Made by a program: the position numbers and the translations under genes
Origin: an uncultured archaeon
GTDB taxonomy: Archaea > Asgardarchaeota > Lokiarchaeia > Sigyniarchaeales > SOKP01
Direction of reading: 5' to 3'
Length of the DNA stretch: 64,000 nt
Assembly: GCA_964632315.1 (NCBI GenBank)
Contig: CAZWEM010000016.1
Location: 13,924-77,923, forward strand
Shown: piece by piece, positions 35,519 to 44,044 of the stretch
How the letters are laid out: every line of letters begins with the position of its first letter
Numbering within the stretch: the first letter of the stretch is position 1
Notes under the pieces: model-generated
Database searches by the model: none
Told to the model about the DNA's origin: nothing
The model's input: the letters and a program-made list of their open reading frames with translations, nothing else

Positions 35519-36595
35519 TTACTCATATATTTTTTGGATATGATACTTCAATTTGCAATCACATTCCATTTTCTCTTCTGGATACTTGATTTCATTAAGG
35601 TTTTGAGTAAGTACAAACTTTTGTAGTATTTTTTTCATGTTCTCATTACACAGCCTATCATTACAATTGTGTATTCCCCTTTTTGTACCTGCTCCAGAAG
35701 GATCTGACACAATACGCGTGCTTTCTAATATTTCTTGAGAGCTTATTGCAGACTTCAGACATTTTATTAAAGAGTAAAACCATGGTGGACGATAAAGCTT
35801 TTTTTTCCAAAGATATTCAACCAAAGTACCTTTTTGAATGTTAATAGGGTTAATAGAGATAGTATTAACTTTTAATTCTATCAATTTCTTGATTGAAGTG
35901 ACACAATCATCGATCGCGGACTTTTCATTAAGGAAAGGGGGTTTTAATAAAAGATATACTCTTACGCCTAATTGATAGCTTTTGCATAACTTTACAGCTG
36001 ATAAAAAGTCATCATAAAGTAGTCCCTTGTTCAAGTATTTAATACGGATATGATCATTCGAAGTTTCTAGTCCTATGGCTATCTCAATATGTTTATTCCC
36101 TAACATTTCTTTCATTTTCTTTAGCTTTGTTTTATCCAAAAATTCAACTCGAGATTCCACAACTATCTCCTTAATCTTATCAACTTGACTGATTTTTTGA
36201 TAAATTAACTCTCTCGTATCTTCATTCATTTCTTCATCATCAAAGAAACTGCCAGAATTAAATATTTTTATAATAAAATTAAAACTATCTTTCTCTATCT
36301 CTTCAATTTTAGCATTCCATGCTTTCTGGAATTGATTTATAATGTGATGGGATTCCACATTTTTTATATAAGAATCTTTAATGTATCCACACATAGAACA
36401 TCCCCCTGTATCGCTTAATGCCCATTTACATCCTCTTGTTCTAAGAATAATTGTAAACTCTTTGCCAATCTCGTTTAATAAACGATCTTCCTTTATCCAA
36501 TAACTTATTGGGTTACTCAATTCCCTTTCAGATAGTTCGGGTATTTCTTTTAGGGCTTTTTTCCGAATTTGTTTCAATTCTTCGATCATTTTCAT
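35519..36595 (-). CDS. Archaeosine biosynthesis radical SAM protein RaSEA
   Basis: ILRTRGCKW..GGCSMCGY, IFNSGSFFD, ESR, GLETSND, LLKPPFL, YRPPW; coupled to arcS. Confidence 0.88.
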   Translation of the reverse strand: MKMIEELKQIRKKALKEIPELSERELSNPISYWIKEDRLLNEIGKEFTIILRTRGCKWALSDTGGCSMCGYIKDSYIKNVESHHIINQFQKAWNAKIEEIEKDSFNFIIKIFNSGSFFDDEEMNEDTRELIYQKISQVDKIKEIVVESRVEFLDKTKLKKMKEMLGNKHIEIAIGLETSNDHIRIKYLNKGLLYDDFLSAVKLCKSYQLGVRVYLLLKPPFLNEKSAIDDCVTSIKKLIELKVNTISINPINIQKGTLVEYLWKKKLYRPPWFYSLIKCLKSAISSQEILESTRIVSDPSGAGTKRGIHNCNDRLCNENMKKILQKFVLTQNLNEIKYPEEKMECDCKLKYHIQKIYE

Positions 36596-38661
36596 TATTT
36601 TCCTGCTTTATTGATTATTTCTGCAATTCTACCTGACATTGAATTTTTAAGAAATGAAGCTCCCACTATCATCTTTGCAATGGAAATAATGTTTTGCTTT
36701 TCGTTATCCCATATCACTACATACCCTTTCGGTTTTAAATCTAAACTATAATCGATAATACCTGGTCTGAATAAAGTGCTCCCTCTTATTTGCTTACCGT
36801 CAAAAATTATATACTTATATTTTCTGAAATGCTCTTTAATCTTATTTGCTCCTTTCAAAGTTAATTCTAACTCGCCGGTATTTTGATCATATTCTCCCAA
36901 ATTAGATTTTGATTTTAAATCAACTATGAAAGAGAGTTTTCTTCTTCTATCTTCCTTTATCTTATAATCACCAGAAAGAAGCAGTTCTCCAACCATTTTA
37001 CCGTAATGATAATCGATAATTTTTTCCAATTTTCTTTTATGATAATTTACTTTTGGATTAGATTGGATCGGATTAAGATTAAATTTTTCTATTGAATTTC
37101 CTAAAGATACGAGGGAATCACGTGAAGTCGTGGATCCAACAATATCAGTGAAATAAAAATTATGATCAGTTTTATCAATTACTTTAGATACAATTTTTCG
37201 ATAGCCTCCCTTTGGGAGATGACAGATTATTGGTATTTGGGAGTTATATTTTTCAAGGAATTTTAATAGCATATTTTCAGTAATCTTGATCTCAGTATCA
37301 TCCCACTCTCCAGTTACTGAGATATTATATGAATTTGCTGGATATATTGTTTCAAGTTGCCGAGGAATGACTCCTAGTGGAGATGTAAGGATAAATTCTT
37401 GGATCTGTGAAAAGTTTGCATTTTTCTTCATTACTGAAAGAAATTTACGATGAGATTTTGATAAAGAATACGGTTTTTTAGATGAACACGGTAATAAAAC
37501 GATTATCTTAGTCCAATTCTCAGGTGTAAATGTCTCCACCACTCTTTTCCTAAATCTTACAAAATCAGGGCGATGATAAGAGGAGGGGCCTATGCTATTA
37601 ATCGTCATTCTTTCTTGAATTACTGGTGTTTCACTACAAATAAATTCAGAATACTGTTTATCTAAAATTTTTAACATTGAAATGAGGTTTGTGTCATCAT
37701 TCGAAGATTTTTCAACGAAAAACCTAAAATCTTCCGTTTTAAGATATTGTTTTATTTTTTGCATGTAATTGTTAAATGTTGTTAAATTATGCAGCGAAAG
37801 CAATTCTATTTTCTCTCTTGAAGGAGATGTTGAATCTAGATCTAATAATTTTGTCCTACATGAGCTACATGAACAAGCGAAATATTTCATTTTATGCAAT
37901 GGTATTGAATATTCAATGGTATTATAAAAATACTCAGATGCAAGAAAGAGAGAATAAGATGCATCAATTAAATCAAATCCCAAATATACCAATAAAGGGT
38001 AAAATTTTGGAATTATTTTACCCGAAATCATTAAGACTAAGTTAGGATCTAAATCTCTTTTTACTTGGATAATTAATTTTAAGATTTGTCTGAAATTTTT
38101 GATGGAATTAAAAAGATCTTCAAAATTCAGGAGCTTGATATTATTATACTGTTTGAATAAATCAATGTATTCCTCTATTAAATCTGGATAATCAAATAAT
38201 TTAATGGTGACTCCAAAATTTAAATCAGGATACTCTTCCAATATATTTCTTGCTGTTTTAACATAATGATTTATTTCATTTTTAGCAAACTCTCTATTTA
38301 CAACATATGATGGATTATTGAATGGGATTAATGCAATTAAGTTATCTTGTGAGAAAATTTCAATTTTTTCCTCTAAAATCTCTTGAAATCTTTCCAGAGT
38401 TCCATAATGAGTGTAAATAAACCCATTTTCTCTGAATTTATCTTGAATAAAAGCGATTTTAAGAAACATCACTTTTGAAATTATAAAAATTTGGTGTTTT
38501 TCAAATTCCTCCAAAAATGATACGATGCTCAATAAAAAATTCTTTAAAGGAATTACCGTATTTGGAGTAGATACAAACCTTTTGAATTCTTTGGATAATA
38601 TGATTCGACCCGTTCGTGATAAACCAATCTCTTTTCTCAGTAACTCAAAAAAAAAAGTCAT
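36595..38661 (-). CDS. arcS: Archaeosine synthase subunit ArcS (TGT-like, DUF5591 and PUA domains)
   Basis: RTGRI, LVYLGFDLID, CSCSSC..HN, LLPCSSKKPYSLSKSH, TSPLGVIPR, YP..Y.I.VTGEW, C-terminal PUA. Confidence 0.88.
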   Translation of the reverse strand: MTFFFELLRKEIGLSRTGRIILSKEFKRFVSTPNTVIPLKNFLLSIVSFLEEFEKHQIFIISKVMFLKIAFIQDKFRENGFIYTHYGTLERFQEILEEKIEIFSQDNLIALIPFNNPSYVVNREFAKNEINHYVKTARNILEEYPDLNFGVTIKLFDYPDLIEEYIDLFKQYNNIKLLNFEDLFNSIKNFRQILKLIIQVKRDLDPNLVLMISGKIIPKFYPLLVYLGFDLIDASYSLFLASEYFYNTIEYSIPLHKMKYFACSCSSCRTKLLDLDSTSPSREKIELLSLHNLTTFNNYMQKIKQYLKTEDFRFFVEKSSNDDTNLISMLKILDKQYSEFICSETPVIQERMTINSIGPSSYHRPDFVRFRKRVVETFTPENWTKIIVLLPCSSKKPYSLSKSHRKFLSVMKKNANFSQIQEFILTSPLGVIPRQLETIYPANSYNISVTGEWDDTEIKITENMLLKFLEKYNSQIPIICHLPKGGYRKIVSKVIDKTDHNFYFTDIVGSTTSRDSLVSLGNSIEKFNLNPIQSNPKVNYHKRKLEKIIDYHYGKMVGELLLSGDYKIKEDRRRKLSFIVDLKSKSNLGEYDQNTGELELTLKGANKIKEHFRKYKYIIFDGKQIRGSTLFRPGIIDYSLDLKPKGYVVIWDNEKQNIISIAKMIVGASFLKNSMSGRIAEIINKAGK

Positions 38662-38716: not shown

Positions 38717-39973
38717 CTAAAAAATTATGAAATTCGTGTGACTAATTAGCTCATCCAAAACAAAATTAGTAAAAGTATCTTCTATATCTTCGGAATTGTA
38801 AAGATTTCTCATAAAATCAGCATAATCTTCTATTTTATTAACTCTAACAATGGCGAATAATCCATATTGTTCTCCAATTCTAAATAGATCTGTAATGTAT
38901 TTATTTGAATCTAGTCTCTTAGCAAGCTCATCATATTTTGAAGGATTTTTTGGTTTTATCCTAAGTAGATATTTTCCTTCAAACCCTACTTTTTTCGGAG
39001 AAAAGTTTACGGTATAATTTAAGATATTTCCATTATTTTCCAATCTTTTAATTCTATTATGTACAGTTGATTGAGATATTTCCATTTGAAATTGATTCTT
39101 GAAAATTTTACTTATTTCATATGTCGATATCGGTCTAGAGCCTTGAAAATCCCGAAGTATATGAAGAATTGAAAAATCAATATCATCTATTTCAAATTCT
39201 GTATCCGCAATTTTCTTATCTGGTTTTAAGCCAATAATTTTGAATATCATTTCTATAATTTGTTCTATCTTACTATCCTTTTTTAAACCAGAAATAACAA
39301 CTTTTCCATTTTCAAATATCGTAAATGATCTTGTTGGGCTCTCAAATCTTATTAATAGACCTGGAAATTTCTCGGGATTAAATTCGATATTCATTTTTTC
39401 TTTATTCCTTGAAATAATTTCATTTAAGTCCAATCTCTCTTTAAGTTCTACTATAACATTATTTTTAGAAGGATCTTTGTTTTCTAAATCATCAATCAAT
39501 TTTTCTTTCAGTGACATTCTTGTTTTTCTTAAACTTATACCGTTTGTTTTAAACACCTTAATAGTGTCAATAATTTGGTATTTTTTAAAATAGGACTTTG
39601 CCATTATTTTATCAATCGTGTTCAATATCTGATAATATTCTCTTGAAGATTTAAAAATTAATAAAGCAAATAAAGAAAAATCCCCAATAATACCATCTAA
39701 CATCCTTAATTGTGAGATTTTTAATAGTTCATTTACCAATTCAGGTTCTTTAGGATTAGTTTTAATCTCAAGCATCACAAATTTCAAGTTATTGGGTCGA
39801 ATATCAGGATTTATGTTTATAGTAAAGTTTGTAATAATTCTGTCTTTTCTTAAATAACCAAGCTTATTTTGATATGTTTGCCTTGATAGTCCTAATTTTC
39901 GGGAATTTTTTGAAGCGCTGAACTTGGATTTACTATTTAGATTTTTTAATATATTTAAGGATTGGATATTCAT
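38717..39973 (-). CDS. Tandem Lrp/AsnC regulator with an inserted single TBP-like repeat
   Basis: Two HTH-RAM modules. Residues ~172-248 read LDLNEI...IEFNPEKFPGLLIRFESPTRSFTIFENGKVVISGLK, a TBP repeat signature. Confidence 0.85.
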   Translation of the reverse strand: MNIQSLNILKNLNSKSKFSASKNSRKLGLSRQTYQNKLGYLRKDRIITNFTININPDIRPNNLKFVMLEIKTNPKEPELVNELLKISQLRMLDGIIGDFSLFALLIFKSSREYYQILNTIDKIMAKSYFKKYQIIDTIKVFKTNGISLRKTRMSLKEKLIDDLENKDPSKNNVIVELKERLDLNEIISRNKEKMNIEFNPEKFPGLLIRFESPTRSFTIFENGKVVISGLKKDSKIEQIIEMIFKIIGLKPDKKIADTEFEIDDIDFSILHILRDFQGSRPISTYEISKIFKNQFQMEISQSTVHNRIKRLENNGNILNYTVNFSPKKVGFEGKYLLRIKPKNPSKYDELAKRLDSNKYITDLFRIGEQYGLFAIVRVNKIEDYADFMRNLYNSEDIEDTFTNFVLDELISHTNFIIF

Positions 39974-40110
39974 TTCATTACATTTTATTAATTTTTATGG
40001 AAATTATAAATTAAATGTTAGTTTTTACATAAAAATATTTGCTTTTAACCAAAAAAAGCTTTATTAATTAATTAAACTTAAAAATCTTAAAACTCAAAAA
40101 CTGAACAAAA

Positions 40111-41379
40111 ATGGTAAATTACAAAGTTGCTGATGAAAACCTTGCAGAACAAGGCAAAGAAGCTTTATACATTGCTGAAAATAAAATGCCGGTAACAGCT
40201 AAAGTCATCAGAGAGCGATTTGAAAGAGAAAAACCTTTAAAAGGAATAACGATAGCAGGATGCCTACATGTTACCAAAGAAACTGGAAATCTGGCCCGAA
40301 CTCTAAAAGCTGGCGGAGCAGAAGTATACTTATGTGGTAGTAATCCATTATCTACACAGGATGATGTCTCAGCTGCTTTAATCAAGGAAGGCATTAATGT
40401 TTTTGCGTGGCACGGAAACACTGATGAGGAATTTTACTGGTGTATCAGACAATGTCTTAAAGCCAAACCAAATATATTGATTGATGATGGGGCCGATATG
40501 ATAGTCACTGCCCACAAGGAATTCCCTGAATTAATTCAAGATGGTACTATAATTGCTTGTCAAGAAGAGACAACTACGGGGGTAAAACGATTTAGGGCAA
40601 TGGATAAGCAAGGAGCCCTTAAAGTTCCTTTATTTCCAGTTAATGACGCACGATGTAAAAATCAATTTGATAATGAATTGGGCACGGGACAAGGTATTGT
40701 GGCAGCAATCTATGGAATGCATGTTTTATTTGCTGGAAAGAATGTAGTTATTGCGGGATATGGGCATTGTTCATCTGGAATGGCTCTTCGAGCAAGAGGA
40801 TTAGGCGCAAGTGTAACGGTTACAGAAGTAGATCCCATCAAAGCACTTCAAGCAAAATTTTCTGGTTTTAACGTGATGCCTATTGCAGAAGCTTTACCTA
40901 AAGCAGATATAGTTCTCACTGCGACCGGATGTAAACATGTTATTACTCCTACTGAAGAAATGTTCAATAAACTTAAAGATGGGGTGATTCTTGGCAATTT
41001 AGGTCATTTCGATATTGAGATTCCAACAAAAGAACTCTATGAATATTCTAAAGAGATTAATCCAATTCGAAAGGATGTAGAGGAATTAATCTTTTCTGAA
41101 GGTAAGAAAGTATATTTATTAGCAAAGGGAAGACTGGCTAACTTGGTTTTATCTGAAGGGCATCCAAGCGAAGTCATGGATATGTCATTTGCACTTCAGT
41201 CATTAATGTCCGAATTCATCGTCAAGAATAAGGAAAAGCTGAAAGCCGGTATAATTGAAGTCCCTACTGAAATAGACGACCAAGTTGGACTTTTAAAGCT
41301 TAAAGCAATGGGGGTTGAAATTGATAAGCTAACTGAAGAACAATATAATTACATTCATGGTTATGAAGAAGGAACTTAA
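40111..41379 (+). CDS. ahcY: Adenosylhomocysteinase
   Basis: GCLHVTKET, SNPLSTQD, DDGAD, EETTTG, VND..K..FDN, GYG, GRLANL..EGHP.EVMDMSF. Confidence 0.97.
   Translation: MVNYKVADENLAEQGKEALYIAENKMPVTAKVIRERFEREKPLKGITIAGCLHVTKETGNLARTLKAGGAEVYLCGSNPLSTQDDVSAALIKEGINVFAWHGNTDEEFYWCIRQCLKAKPNILIDDGADMIVTAHKEFPELIQDGTIIACQEETTTGVKRFRAMDKQGALKVPLFPVNDARCKNQFDNELGTGQGIVAAIYGMHVLFAGKNVVIAGYGHCSSGMALRARGLGASVTVTEVDPIKALQAKFSGFNVMPIAEALPKADIVLTATGCKHVITPTEEMFNKLKDGVILGNLGHFDIEIPTKELYEYSKEINPIRKDVEELIFSEGKKVYLLAKGRLANLVLSEGHPSEVMDMSFALQSLMSEFIVKNKEKLKAGIIEVPTEIDDQVGLLKLKAMGVEIDKLTEEQYNYIHGYEEGT
41266..41379 (+). repeat. ahcY 3' end, copy 1 of a 114-bp direct repeat
   Basis: Aligns without gaps to 45059-45172 (92/114 identical by hand count). 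Confidence 0.9.
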
Positions 41380-41785: not shown

Positions 41786-44044
41786 ATGAATTCTATTTTT
41801 GAAAAAATTATTGAACCTACTGACAAATTTATATTTTTAGTTGGAGCAGGAATTTCTATGGATACTCCAAGTAGACTGCCTTCAGCTAAAAAGTTTGTTG
41901 AAACTCTGGTAAGATTATCCGTTCCTGCTGAAGAAATTGATCTGATTTTACAACAAGAATCTTTAAGATATGAGGTTTTTATTGAACAACTTCAACAATA
42001 TATTGATAAATCTCTTAGATTTCTGGATTTTTTGGAAACAAGAATGAAACCAAATCTTATCCATTACTTTTTAGGTCATAACATTATTGCTAAAAACTTT
42101 GTAATAACCACGAATTTTGATTACTTAATTGAATATGCACTGATAAACCTTCTTTCCAAAGAAGAAAGGAGCAAGATAAATCCTATAATCCTAAAAAAAC
42201 AATATTTAGATCTTAATCCGATAAGCGATTTAGCAAATACCAAACAGTTCTTACTTTTTAAACTCCATGGGTCAAAGAGAAATCTTATAACAGAACAAAA
42301 TACAATCGAATCTTTGATTACTACCATTTCCTCACTAGGAAGGGATCGAGAGGAAGGGGACACTTTGACTATTGAACCATATAAAAAGCCAATAATTTCT
42401 AAAATAATAAAAGATCGTGTTCTAATCATATTAGGCTATTCTGGAAGTGATGATTTTGATATTACTCCTTTCTTAAAAGAAATCACTTCATATCGAAAAG
42501 TCATTTGGATTGACCATATCCTGAAAACAGGATTAGAAAATATAGAAATAAATCATTTCAATTCAGGTTTAAATTCAGATCTAGCAAAACAAGAAAAACT
42601 CTTATTTGATATAAAGAATACACACAATATTGAGACATACTTAGTCAAAGTGAATACTAAAACTTTTATATCAGAAATCTTATGGTCGAAAATTCTACCA
42701 TCCATTGCAATCACTAAAGAAGAGGTTGAGGATGATATAATTTATCCTGATTTTGATGAATGGATAAAAACATTGGATGAGTATGAAAATATTGATTTAA
42801 TTACCCAATATAAATTCGCAGGATATATTTACTACAGTCTAAGTGATTGGAAAAATGCAGGACGTGTATGGCAAAAAGGATTAGATTTAGCTAGATCTAA
42901 GAATGATCTAAAAGGGGAATCAGAATTTTTAACCAATGTTGCAAGCCTCCCTTCTAGAGAATTACCCATTAATGAATGTTTAGAAAATTTAGAAGTAGCA
43001 AAAAATTTATATGTCAAGCTTAATGATTATGAAGGGCAATCATCTTGTCTGAATAATATCGGAACCATCTATTCTAATGAAGCCGATTTCAAAAATGCTA
43101 TAAATAATTATTTGGAATCATTAAAGCTTAATGAAATACATAATGATTTAGAGGGATCTATAGTCCCTCTTCTTAATCTTGGAGCCACTTATGGAAAAAT
43201 GGGAAATCAGGATAAAGCTTTAGATTATTATCAAAAAGTTTTAAATATAGTAAATAAAACAGGAGATTTGCAACATAAAGCGCAAGCACTGATGAATATT
43301 GGGGTGGTTCATAAAGCCTCTGGAGAGAAGGAGAAAGCCTTGAAATTTTTTGAAGAAGCTTTACAGATTGATATTTTACTTGGAACAATTCCAGAACAAA
43401 CTGTAAGGCTAAATTATATTGGTTTAACATATCAAGATTTAGGGGATTATGACAAAGCATTTGAATTTTTTAATAGAGGACTTTATTTAGCAACAGAGAT
43501 AAATGATTATGAGAGCAAGGCAAGTCTCTTTCATATGATTGGAAATTTACATGATCTTTTGAAAAACAAGCTAGAAGCTACTAAGAATTGGGAGAATGCT
43601 CTTAAAATTTGTGAAGAACACAATATGATCCCTAATAAAGTGAACATTCTAAACTCTATGGGATCCTCCGCCTATAATCTCGGGAATTATGATGAAGCTT
43701 TAGCACTATTCAGGCGCTCTTTAGAAACCGCTCAGGTAATTGGTGATAAGAATTTCATTATTGAAATGTATAATAGTATAGCTGTAGTATCTCATACTAT
43801 GCAAGACTACGAAAGATCTTATAATAGTTATTTAATGATCCTTGATCTCTTAAAAGATGGCGATGATATAGAGAGAAAAGCGAAATATCTTAGAAGTATG
43901 GCTATTTCTTATTATAATTATACACAAGATTGTGAAATGGCAATTGAGATATTAAAAGATGCCCAAGCAATTTATGAAGGATTAGGTGATGCTCAAACTA
44001 TAGAGGAAATTAAAAATGACATTGAAAATCTTCAAAATCAATAA
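41786..44044 (+). CDS. SIR2-like NADase domain plus TPR-repeat protein (candidate defence effector)
   Basis: FLVGAGIS, ITTNFD, KLHGS and LGYSGSDDFDI motifs, then about 10 TPRs (LNNIGTIY, LLNLGATY, LMNIGVVH, LNYIGLTY). Confidence 0.9.
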   Translation: MNSIFEKIIEPTDKFIFLVGAGISMDTPSRLPSAKKFVETLVRLSVPAEEIDLILQQESLRYEVFIEQLQQYIDKSLRFLDFLETRMKPNLIHYFLGHNIIAKNFVITTNFDYLIEYALINLLSKEERSKINPIILKKQYLDLNPISDLANTKQFLLFKLHGSKRNLITEQNTIESLITTISSLGRDREEGDTLTIEPYKKPIISKIIKDRVLIILGYSGSDDFDITPFLKEITSYRKVIWIDHILKTGLENIEINHFNSGLNSDLAKQEKLLFDIKNTHNIETYLVKVNTKTFISEILWSKILPSIAITKEEVEDDIIYPDFDEWIKTLDEYENIDLITQYKFAGYIYYSLSDWKNAGRVWQKGLDLARSKNDLKGESEFLTNVASLPSRELPINECLENLEVAKNLYVKLNDYEGQSSCLNNIGTIYSNEADFKNAINNYLESLKLNEIHNDLEGSIVPLLNLGATYGKMGNQDKALDYYQKVLNIVNKTGDLQHKAQALMNIGVVHKASGEKEKALKFFEEALQIDILLGTIPEQTVRLNYIGLTYQDLGDYDKAFEFFNRGLYLATEINDYESKASLFHMIGNLHDLLKNKLEATKNWENALKICEEHNMIPNKVNILNSMGSSAYNLGNYDEALALFRRSLETAQVIGDKNFIIEMYNSIAVVSHTMQDYERSYNSYLMILDLLKDGDDIERKAKYLRSMAISYYNYTQDCEMAIEILKDAQAIYEGLGDAQTIEEIKNDIENLQNQ

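Follow-up and report, generated by a model that had tools for sequence, protein, structure and literature searches.

At this locus, a gene for a 418-aa regulator (positions 38717..39973, minus strand) is divergent from ahcY (40111..41379, plus strand) and combines, according to its open reading frame and domain searches, two Lrp modules with a helix and a single repeat of the TATA-binding protein (TBP) set between them. The window, i.e. the whole stretch of 64,000 nucleotides that was analysed, is AT-rich (about 30% GC) and belongs to contig C16 of a 4.45-Mb assembly in 119 contigs. The product of ahcY is S-adenosyl-L-homocysteine hydrolase (Pfam AdoHcyase E 1.6e-62, NAD domain E 1.2e-43), and this gene, the probable target of the regulator, is separated from it by a divergent control region of 137 bp (39974..40110), recognised from its length and conserved blocks. 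On the other side, 55 nt downstream of the regulator and co-oriented with it, lies a gene for an ArcS-like protein of 688 aa with TGT and DUF5591 domains (36595..38661, minus strand; Pfam DUF5591 E 5e-48, TGT E 3e-11), which pertains to the archaeosine pathway; since this position is kept across the genus, the ArcS-like gene and the regulator may be co-transcribed. Just downstream of ahcY (41786-44044, plus strand), Pfam identifies a 752-aa protein in which a SIR2_2 domain precedes many TPR motifs, which lies outside the conserved synteny of the regulator.

Domain architecture of the regulator and its control region

From the N- to the C-terminus, the regulator is composed of an Lrp-like module (residues 1-148; 39530..39973, minus strand as for the following parts) with an HTH and a RAM-type β-α-β-β-α-β unit, a linker (residues 149-170; 39464..39529) with a short amphipathic helix predicted by AF2 at residues 155-164, a single TBP repeat (residues 171-248; 39230..39463) and a second Lrp/AsnC module (residues 259-418 and the stop codon; 38717..39199). 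Regarding the TBP repeat, the Pfam model PF00352 matches residues 175-247 with an E-value of 3.8e-16 and 59.1 bits (cut-off 22.9), the NCBIfam TBP models match at residues 160-250, the NCBIfam Lrp models being concordant, and the best match of the regulator in the PDB by phmmer is the TBP of S. acidocaldarius (1mp9, E 9.5e-19), the repeat being alignable to either repeat of real TBPs in this search. Modelled on its own by AF2 (pLDDT 79, pTM 0.69), the segment of residues 150-258 follows the order helix, S1, H1, S2, S3, S4, S5, H2, which is the topology of a TBP repeat, and all 43 matches returned by Foldseek for this domain model in the PDB with E<1e-3 are TBPs, over 77-80 columns, with an rmsd of 2.1-2.8 Å and 26-36% identity. 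The earlier note had read one half of the TBP saddle between two Lrp modules and had let that reading hang on a TBP profile match and a TBP fold: both were obtained, the proposed half maps to residues 171-248 at window positions 39230-39463, and the TBP phenylalanines it had cited are present as F203 and F220. The full-length AF2 model (pLDDT 64, pTM 0.35) contains two RAM-type units as well as a β-α-β4-α unit at residues 172-247; its inter-domain positions are of low confidence and it was not used for domain placement, the Foldseek alignments with this model extending over about 210 columns across domains at an rmsd of about 15 Å, which is uninformative.

As for the Lrp modules, the AsnC_trans_reg and HTH signals found by Pfam in the whole protein fall within residues 296-407, with PF01037 at residues 339-407 (39.9 bits, cut-off 25), and the C-terminal module taken alone scores 31.3 bits with PF01037 and 22.8 bits with HTH_24 (cut-off 21.9). 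In PDB sequence searches, PH1519/FL11 matches residues 260-407 (E 3e-9) and ST1022 (2efo) weakly matches residues 5-131 (E 6e-4). The isolated N-terminal module has no significant match in Pfam; compared by hhalign with the profile of the C-terminal module, it aligns over 94 columns with a probability of 96% (E 4.6e-9), from the HTH recognition helix through the RAM domain, and it is only through this profile alignment that its winged HTH is assigned to the AsnC/HTH_24 type. As the N-terminal module aligns in this way to the C-terminal one, the regulator is, on profile evidence, a true tandem of two Lrp modules and a member of the Lrp/AsnC family. The secondary structure of the N-terminal module in the full-length AF2 model runs E65-71, H77-84, E89-97, E100-106, H110-124 and E131-138, and this module is the most conserved part of the family in the homologue alignment. 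The regulator itself matches cluster P0001 at 100%, and the 486 homologues returned are labelled Promethearchaeota/Lokiarchaeia, which identifies the host as a Loki-type Asgard archaeon, and named only 'Lrp/AsnC ligand binding domain-containing' or 'hypothetical'. The fusion is genuine and subject to selection, and in the literature searched no description was found of it, nor of any other Lrp that possesses a domain of a basal factor.

The divergent arrangement of the regulator with ahcY holds in 57 of 63 loci, the remaining six having too little upstream sequence to tell, and likewise in five genomes of other families in the order, which gives strength to the link with ahcY proposed earlier. 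The spacer measures 134-139 bp in most of the 57 loci, with lengths of 136-139 bp prevailing. Alignment of 40 loci, including forms with and without the repeat, delineated conserved blocks: a TTTATTAATTAATTAAA block with columns conserved at 80% or more, likely the TATA box of ahcY, 35-51 nt before its ATG (40060..40076, plus strand); a central block, TTTTTGGTTAAA-GCAAA-TATTT in the sense of the regulator, considered as a candidate operator (40032..40057); a TTAACATTTAATTAATAAT-type block, likely the BRE/TATA of the regulator, 28-48 nt before its ATG (40001..40021, minus strand); and, as fourth conserved block, a TGCAAAATTGT-type block close to the start of the regulator, diverged in the window itself. 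The central candidate operator thus lies between two TATA-like blocks. Considering an AT-rich intergenic region, the near-fixed length of the spacer and the presence of four blocks over some 40 diverged loci are unusually rigid. The conserved blocks do not differ between loci with and without the repeat, and no cis-element distinguishing the two was found among the 40 aligned loci. Scans of this AT-rich region for inverted repeats, sigma-70 promoters and terminators gave nothing above chance, and no operator is named for that reason. The regulator probably controls the divergent ahcY.

Distribution, origin and constraint of the TBP repeat

Among the 486 homologues, forms of about 410-440 aa possess PF00352 and forms of about 318 aa are devoid of it. 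When the two are aligned, their Lrp modules are 60-93% identical, and the short forms correspond to the same protein minus about 110 residues, with a linker of 8 residues remaining; the borders of two further deletions differ, being at 11 and 27 residues. The linker with its helix (residues 149-170) is absent from the forms with a short insert of 92-93 aa, and it is all that P0116, which has lost the TBP repeat, retains of the insert. A paralogous relationship between the forms with and without the insert was rejected, as the regulator is present in one copy per genome in the window's genus and at the same syntenic site; this single copy and the gene order common to both forms, namely the ArcS-like gene, the regulator and divergent ahcY, make them orthologues. 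The repeat is present in this regulator in 10 of the 42 species genomes of the window's genus and, in a second genus of the same family, in at least 19 of 54 genomes, and it may occur in further genera; over 80 species-level contigs, all from uncultured MAGs, about 36 have the repeat and 44 do not. Orthologues lacking the insert, which the earlier note had envisaged, are hence the majority and occupy the same syntenic locus. A mini-intron of this genome was considered and rejected as an explanation for the insert, given its length of about 330 nt, the folded domain that it encodes and its conservation at the protein level. As a separate observation, the orthologues P0077, P0096 and P0117 carry an insert of 6-8 residues (e.g. 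RMTLKSLN) in the HTH of the second module, which could be an untranslated mini-intron.

The history of the regulator was reconstructed from the Lrp columns only, in a tree rooted with the tandem Lrp genes of the five genomes of other families, as well as in an unrooted version. All five outgroup genes lack the repeat and all five are divergent from ahcY; within the rooted tree, two repeat-less species of the window's genus branch first, followed by a crown clade (SH-aLRT 99) comprising 86 forms with the repeat and 30 without, the latter nested at four places, which amounts to a minimum of five changes. This topology would most simply be accounted for by one gain and at least four clean losses of the repeat. 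By the same reconstruction, a copy of the TBP N-repeat entered the inter-module linker in the ancestor of this crown clade of Loki-type Asgard archaea. Regarding the source of the copy, all 86 inserts score higher against the N-repeat of the TBP of the genus than against its C-repeat (on average 86 vs. 47 bits), with mean identities of 47% and 33%, respectively, the window copy being 43% identical to the N-repeat; five lobes from a second, unrelated protein family (family X) are likewise closer to the TBP N-repeat, for a total of 91 single repeats. In the repeat tree, the C-repeats split off at 100% support, and the N-repeats, the inserts and the family X lobes group together, which is compatible with a single origin of the inserts. 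Judged by these scores and this tree, the TBP lobe was copied from the first, N-terminal, repeat of the TBP that belongs to the lineage itself.

In family X, the same TBP N-lobe forms the C-terminus of the protein in 9-10 genomes belonging to the genus, in frames of 319-324 aa (L054:1309-2271:- on contig C179 of G014, and L055-L058), whereas in 13 other genomes the family is without the lobe (227-272 aa). Its N-terminal part of about 225 aa gave no match in Pfam, PDB sequence search or ESM Atlas. None of the genomes has the lobe in both the regulator and family X, a complementary pattern that is confounded by relatedness, and the genome of the window has no close X orthologue. Besides, the only canonical TBP gene of this genome, outside the window, contains an insert of 30 nt at the exact point where its two repeats meet, between QNI and VAS (L001:1799-1828, i.e. 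about 19083-19112 of contig C18 of G000), with an in-frame TAA at L001 1816-1818. This insert is absent from all eight aligned relatives, no similarly interrupted TBP frame was encountered in the 41 other genomes of the genus, and its fold, with a helix, a 3-nt bulge, a 4-bp helix and a helix (z -2.9), resembles a BHB mini-intron; if left unspliced, it would yield a free N-terminal half-TBP. Several relatives have two full tandem TBP genes and others have divergent two-repeat TBP paralogues of about 195 aa (G004:C60, G008:C9 and G002:C136). Such a turnover of TBP genes could have provided the raw material for lobe capture.

Selection on the repeat was estimated from seven sister-like pairs, drawn from loci of metagenomes and species genomes and pooled for Nei-Gojobori counts, with the closest relatives (86-89% identity) left aside. 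The pooled omega reaches 0.366 for the TBP repeat, which is below neutrality (p 1.4e-10), vs. 0.106 for the Lrp modules (odds ratio 2.9, Fisher p 5e-13), that is a constraint about three times weaker in the repeat; for the window's own pair, the values are 0.26 and 0.08, and in one pair the omega of the repeat is 0.8. The 86 inserts are all in an intact frame, despite identities within the insert down to 26%. On these counts and given its losses, the repeat is under purifying selection and yet dispensable. With an omega of 0.37 and at least four losses, it is not subject to the strong purifying selection of an essential basal factor, as opposed to the canonical TBP N-repeat, which is nearly invariant over 33 sequences of the window's genus.

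Along the 86 inserts, the least variable element is the stirrup, where Y/F-N-P-E-K/R-F-P-G-L is retained; F203 is found in 100% and F220 in 84% of them, and G223 is invariant. Positions are assigned to DNA contacts by reference to yeast TBP-DNA structures. Lys or Arg occupies three outer contact positions in 95, 85 and 91% of the inserts, an aliphatic residue is kept at two contact positions, and T/S/N is found at the Thr position. Strand S1, of about 5 residues in the AF2 models, is the most variable strand; the equivalents of its central Asn and Val are not conserved, and at its DNA-facing positions Asn/Lys and Glu now predominate. Variability is also high in helix H2, which, with the convex face, constitutes the most variable part of the inserts. 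The mean net charge of the core is -0.1 for the inserts and +1 for the window copy, compared with +4.7 for canonical N-repeats.

Possible roles of the lobe

The role tentatively favoured for the lobe, to which somewhat less than an even chance is granted, is that of a weak accessory contact with the flanking AT-rich promoter DNA. The regulator would act as a single-chain 'dimer' of two Lrp/AsnC modules, locally, on divergent ahcY and on its own gene, the Lrp core ensuring operator binding and ligand sensing and being the source of specificity. The inter-module linker would adjoin the outward-facing HTH domains of the Lrp assembly and the lobe would sit beside the second HTH, the full-length AF2 model (pTM 0.35) being of too low confidence to place it. 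The lobe could then make an extra weak contact of the minor-groove type with the AT-rich, TATA-like DNA flanking the operator, via the outer half of its old DNA-binding face, namely the stirrup, the two Phe and the basic residues, and the effect of this contact would be to adjust occupancy, DNA bending or the access of TBP at both promoters rather than to replace TBP. The retention of F203, F220 and the outer basic and aliphatic contact positions argues for it; the loss of the central S1 contacts, the acidic residues on the DNA-facing side of S1, a net charge of about zero, the lack of a differing cis-element, the four or more clean deletions and the restriction to 10 carriers out of 42 genomes argue against it. 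Besides, the conserved Phe, Pro, Gly and Leu of the lobe may be kept for folding alone.

Another explanation, considered rather unlikely, is that the lobe is a protein-contact module touching TFB or the cell's TBP, for example on the concave face or the stirrups of that TBP, and thereby recruiting or withholding basal factors at the ahcY and regulator promoters, as a hard-wired version of the activation exerted by Ptr2, a member of the Lrp family that directly contacts TBP from just upstream of the BRE (PMC2995911). Such a module is consistent with the stirrup, of all surfaces of the insert, being the most conserved, with the loss of positive charge, which fits a role other than DNA binding, and with the lack of a dedicated cis-element; still, the conserved stirrup residues double as fold and DNA-contact residues. 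TBP contacts TFB chiefly through its C-terminal stirrup, whereas the lobe derives from the N-terminal repeat, and helix H2 and the convex face, which TBP uses for many of its partner contacts, are the most variable parts of the inserts. That the lobe is instead tolerated as a passenger, filling a permissive linker as a folded spacer without specific molecular function, which persists since its removal needs a precise in-frame event, appears decidedly unlikely: its optional character with at least four losses, a substitution rate three times that of its flanks, with an omega of 0.8 in one pair, and the lack of a correlated cis-element speak in its favour, but a pooled omega of 0.37 significantly below 1 and the conservation of fold-specific as well as solvent-exposed Phe positions over 86 diverse copies in frame speak against it. 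Moreover, a second protein family has separately captured the same lobe, which there makes up a clade of its own, and this suggests a usefulness of the lobe as a module.

The reconstitution of a saddle on oligomerisation, as put forward in the earlier note, would involve lobes of neighbouring protomers pairing via their S1 edges into a symmetric TBP-like saddle on the TATA box, which would nucleate or block the pre-initiation complex. Lrp proteins do oligomerise (PMC2995911), the lobe retains the two Phe that kink DNA along with its outer contact residues, and TATA-like blocks are found on both sides of the candidate operator; this arrangement is nonetheless very unlikely, considering that S1, through which the lobes would pair, is only some 5 residues long in the model and the most variable strand, that conservation is lacking at the equivalents of the central Asn/Val, with Glu on the DNA-facing side, that the lobe is neutral or negative, and that it was repeatedly lost without change in the promoter. 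The constraint on the lobe is also far weaker than on the real TBP, nearly invariant in the genus, and its origin is the N-terminal repeat when the chief TFB-binding lobe is the other one. More improbable still is the further proposal that the paired lobes make up an operator-tethered saddle, i.e. a gene-private TBP nucleating or locking the ahcY pre-initiation complex without the general TBP; if true, it would offer a living model of the homodimeric half-TBP from before the duplication of the TBP gene.

Whatever the role, a piece of the basal transcription machinery common to archaea and eukaryotes has been copied into a gene-specific regulator of bacterial type, in the archaeal group closest to eukaryotes, and with this fusion the customary separation between basal factors and regulators becomes less sharp. 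Its capture by a second unrelated protein suggests that the lobe behaves as a portable module in these genomes. As orthologues with and without the lobe share the locus and the promoter DNA, they constitute a natural experiment on a single TBP lobe, relevant both to the descent of TBP from a single-domain ancestor and to the way in which contacts between activators and basal factors arose.

Comparison with known systems

Among archaeal Lrp/AsnC (feast/famine) proteins, the closest points of comparison are FL11/PH1519 (1ri7, 2cyy, 2e1c), LrpA from P. furiosus (1i1g) and ST1022/Grp (2efo). Like them, the regulator has an HTH and a RAM domain in both modules, with the C-terminal module above the Pfam cut-off, and, like local Lrp regulators, its gene is divergent from a metabolic target across an AT-rich control region; unlike them, it bears the two modules in one chain, with a TBP repeat of about 80 residues and a helix in the linker. 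In this family, dimers bind sites of 13-17 bp that are AT-rich at the centre, the HTH domains point outward from the oligomers, and repression by LrpA comes about through a block to RNA polymerase, whereas Ptr2 activates as described above (PMC2995911). The likeness to Ptr2 would be one of position only, a conserved block lying just upstream of the TATA-like block of ahcY.

The relatives of known structure on the side of the TBP N-repeat are 1mp9, 2z8u, 1ais/1pcz and 1ytb, in addition to the genome's own two-repeat TBP, encoded by a separate gene on contig C18. The lobe shares with them the S1-H1-S2-S3-S4-S5-H2 fold, a recognisable sequence, the stirrup motif and both Phe, but it differs by its single repeat, in place of the two that form one saddle in TBP, its short and variable S1 without the central Asn/Val, its neutral charge, its fast evolution, its embedding in another protein and its dispensability. 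With one repeat, without the central contacts and without the constraint of an essential factor, the regulator is not a TBP.

Lone TBP-type domains have been reported in proteins of about 95 aa from Thermococcales, in halobacterial TbpA, in the N-domain of RNase HIII, in DNA glycosylases and in the adaptin/COPG appendages, with no Lrp context among the TBP-domain proteins covered (Brindefalk et al., 2013; PMC3597702). With RNase HIII and the others, the regulator has in common a lone TBP-type domain outside TBP, and some of these proteins, such as RNase HIII, bind nucleic-acid duplexes. It is distinct from monopartite TBP-domain proteins (about 80-150 aa with one TBP domain), the domain being internal to 418 aa. 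Finally, the known lone domains are ancient and highly diverged, whereas the lobe of the regulator is a recent, lineage-specific copy of the N-repeat of the host TBP, inserted internally in a transcription regulator.
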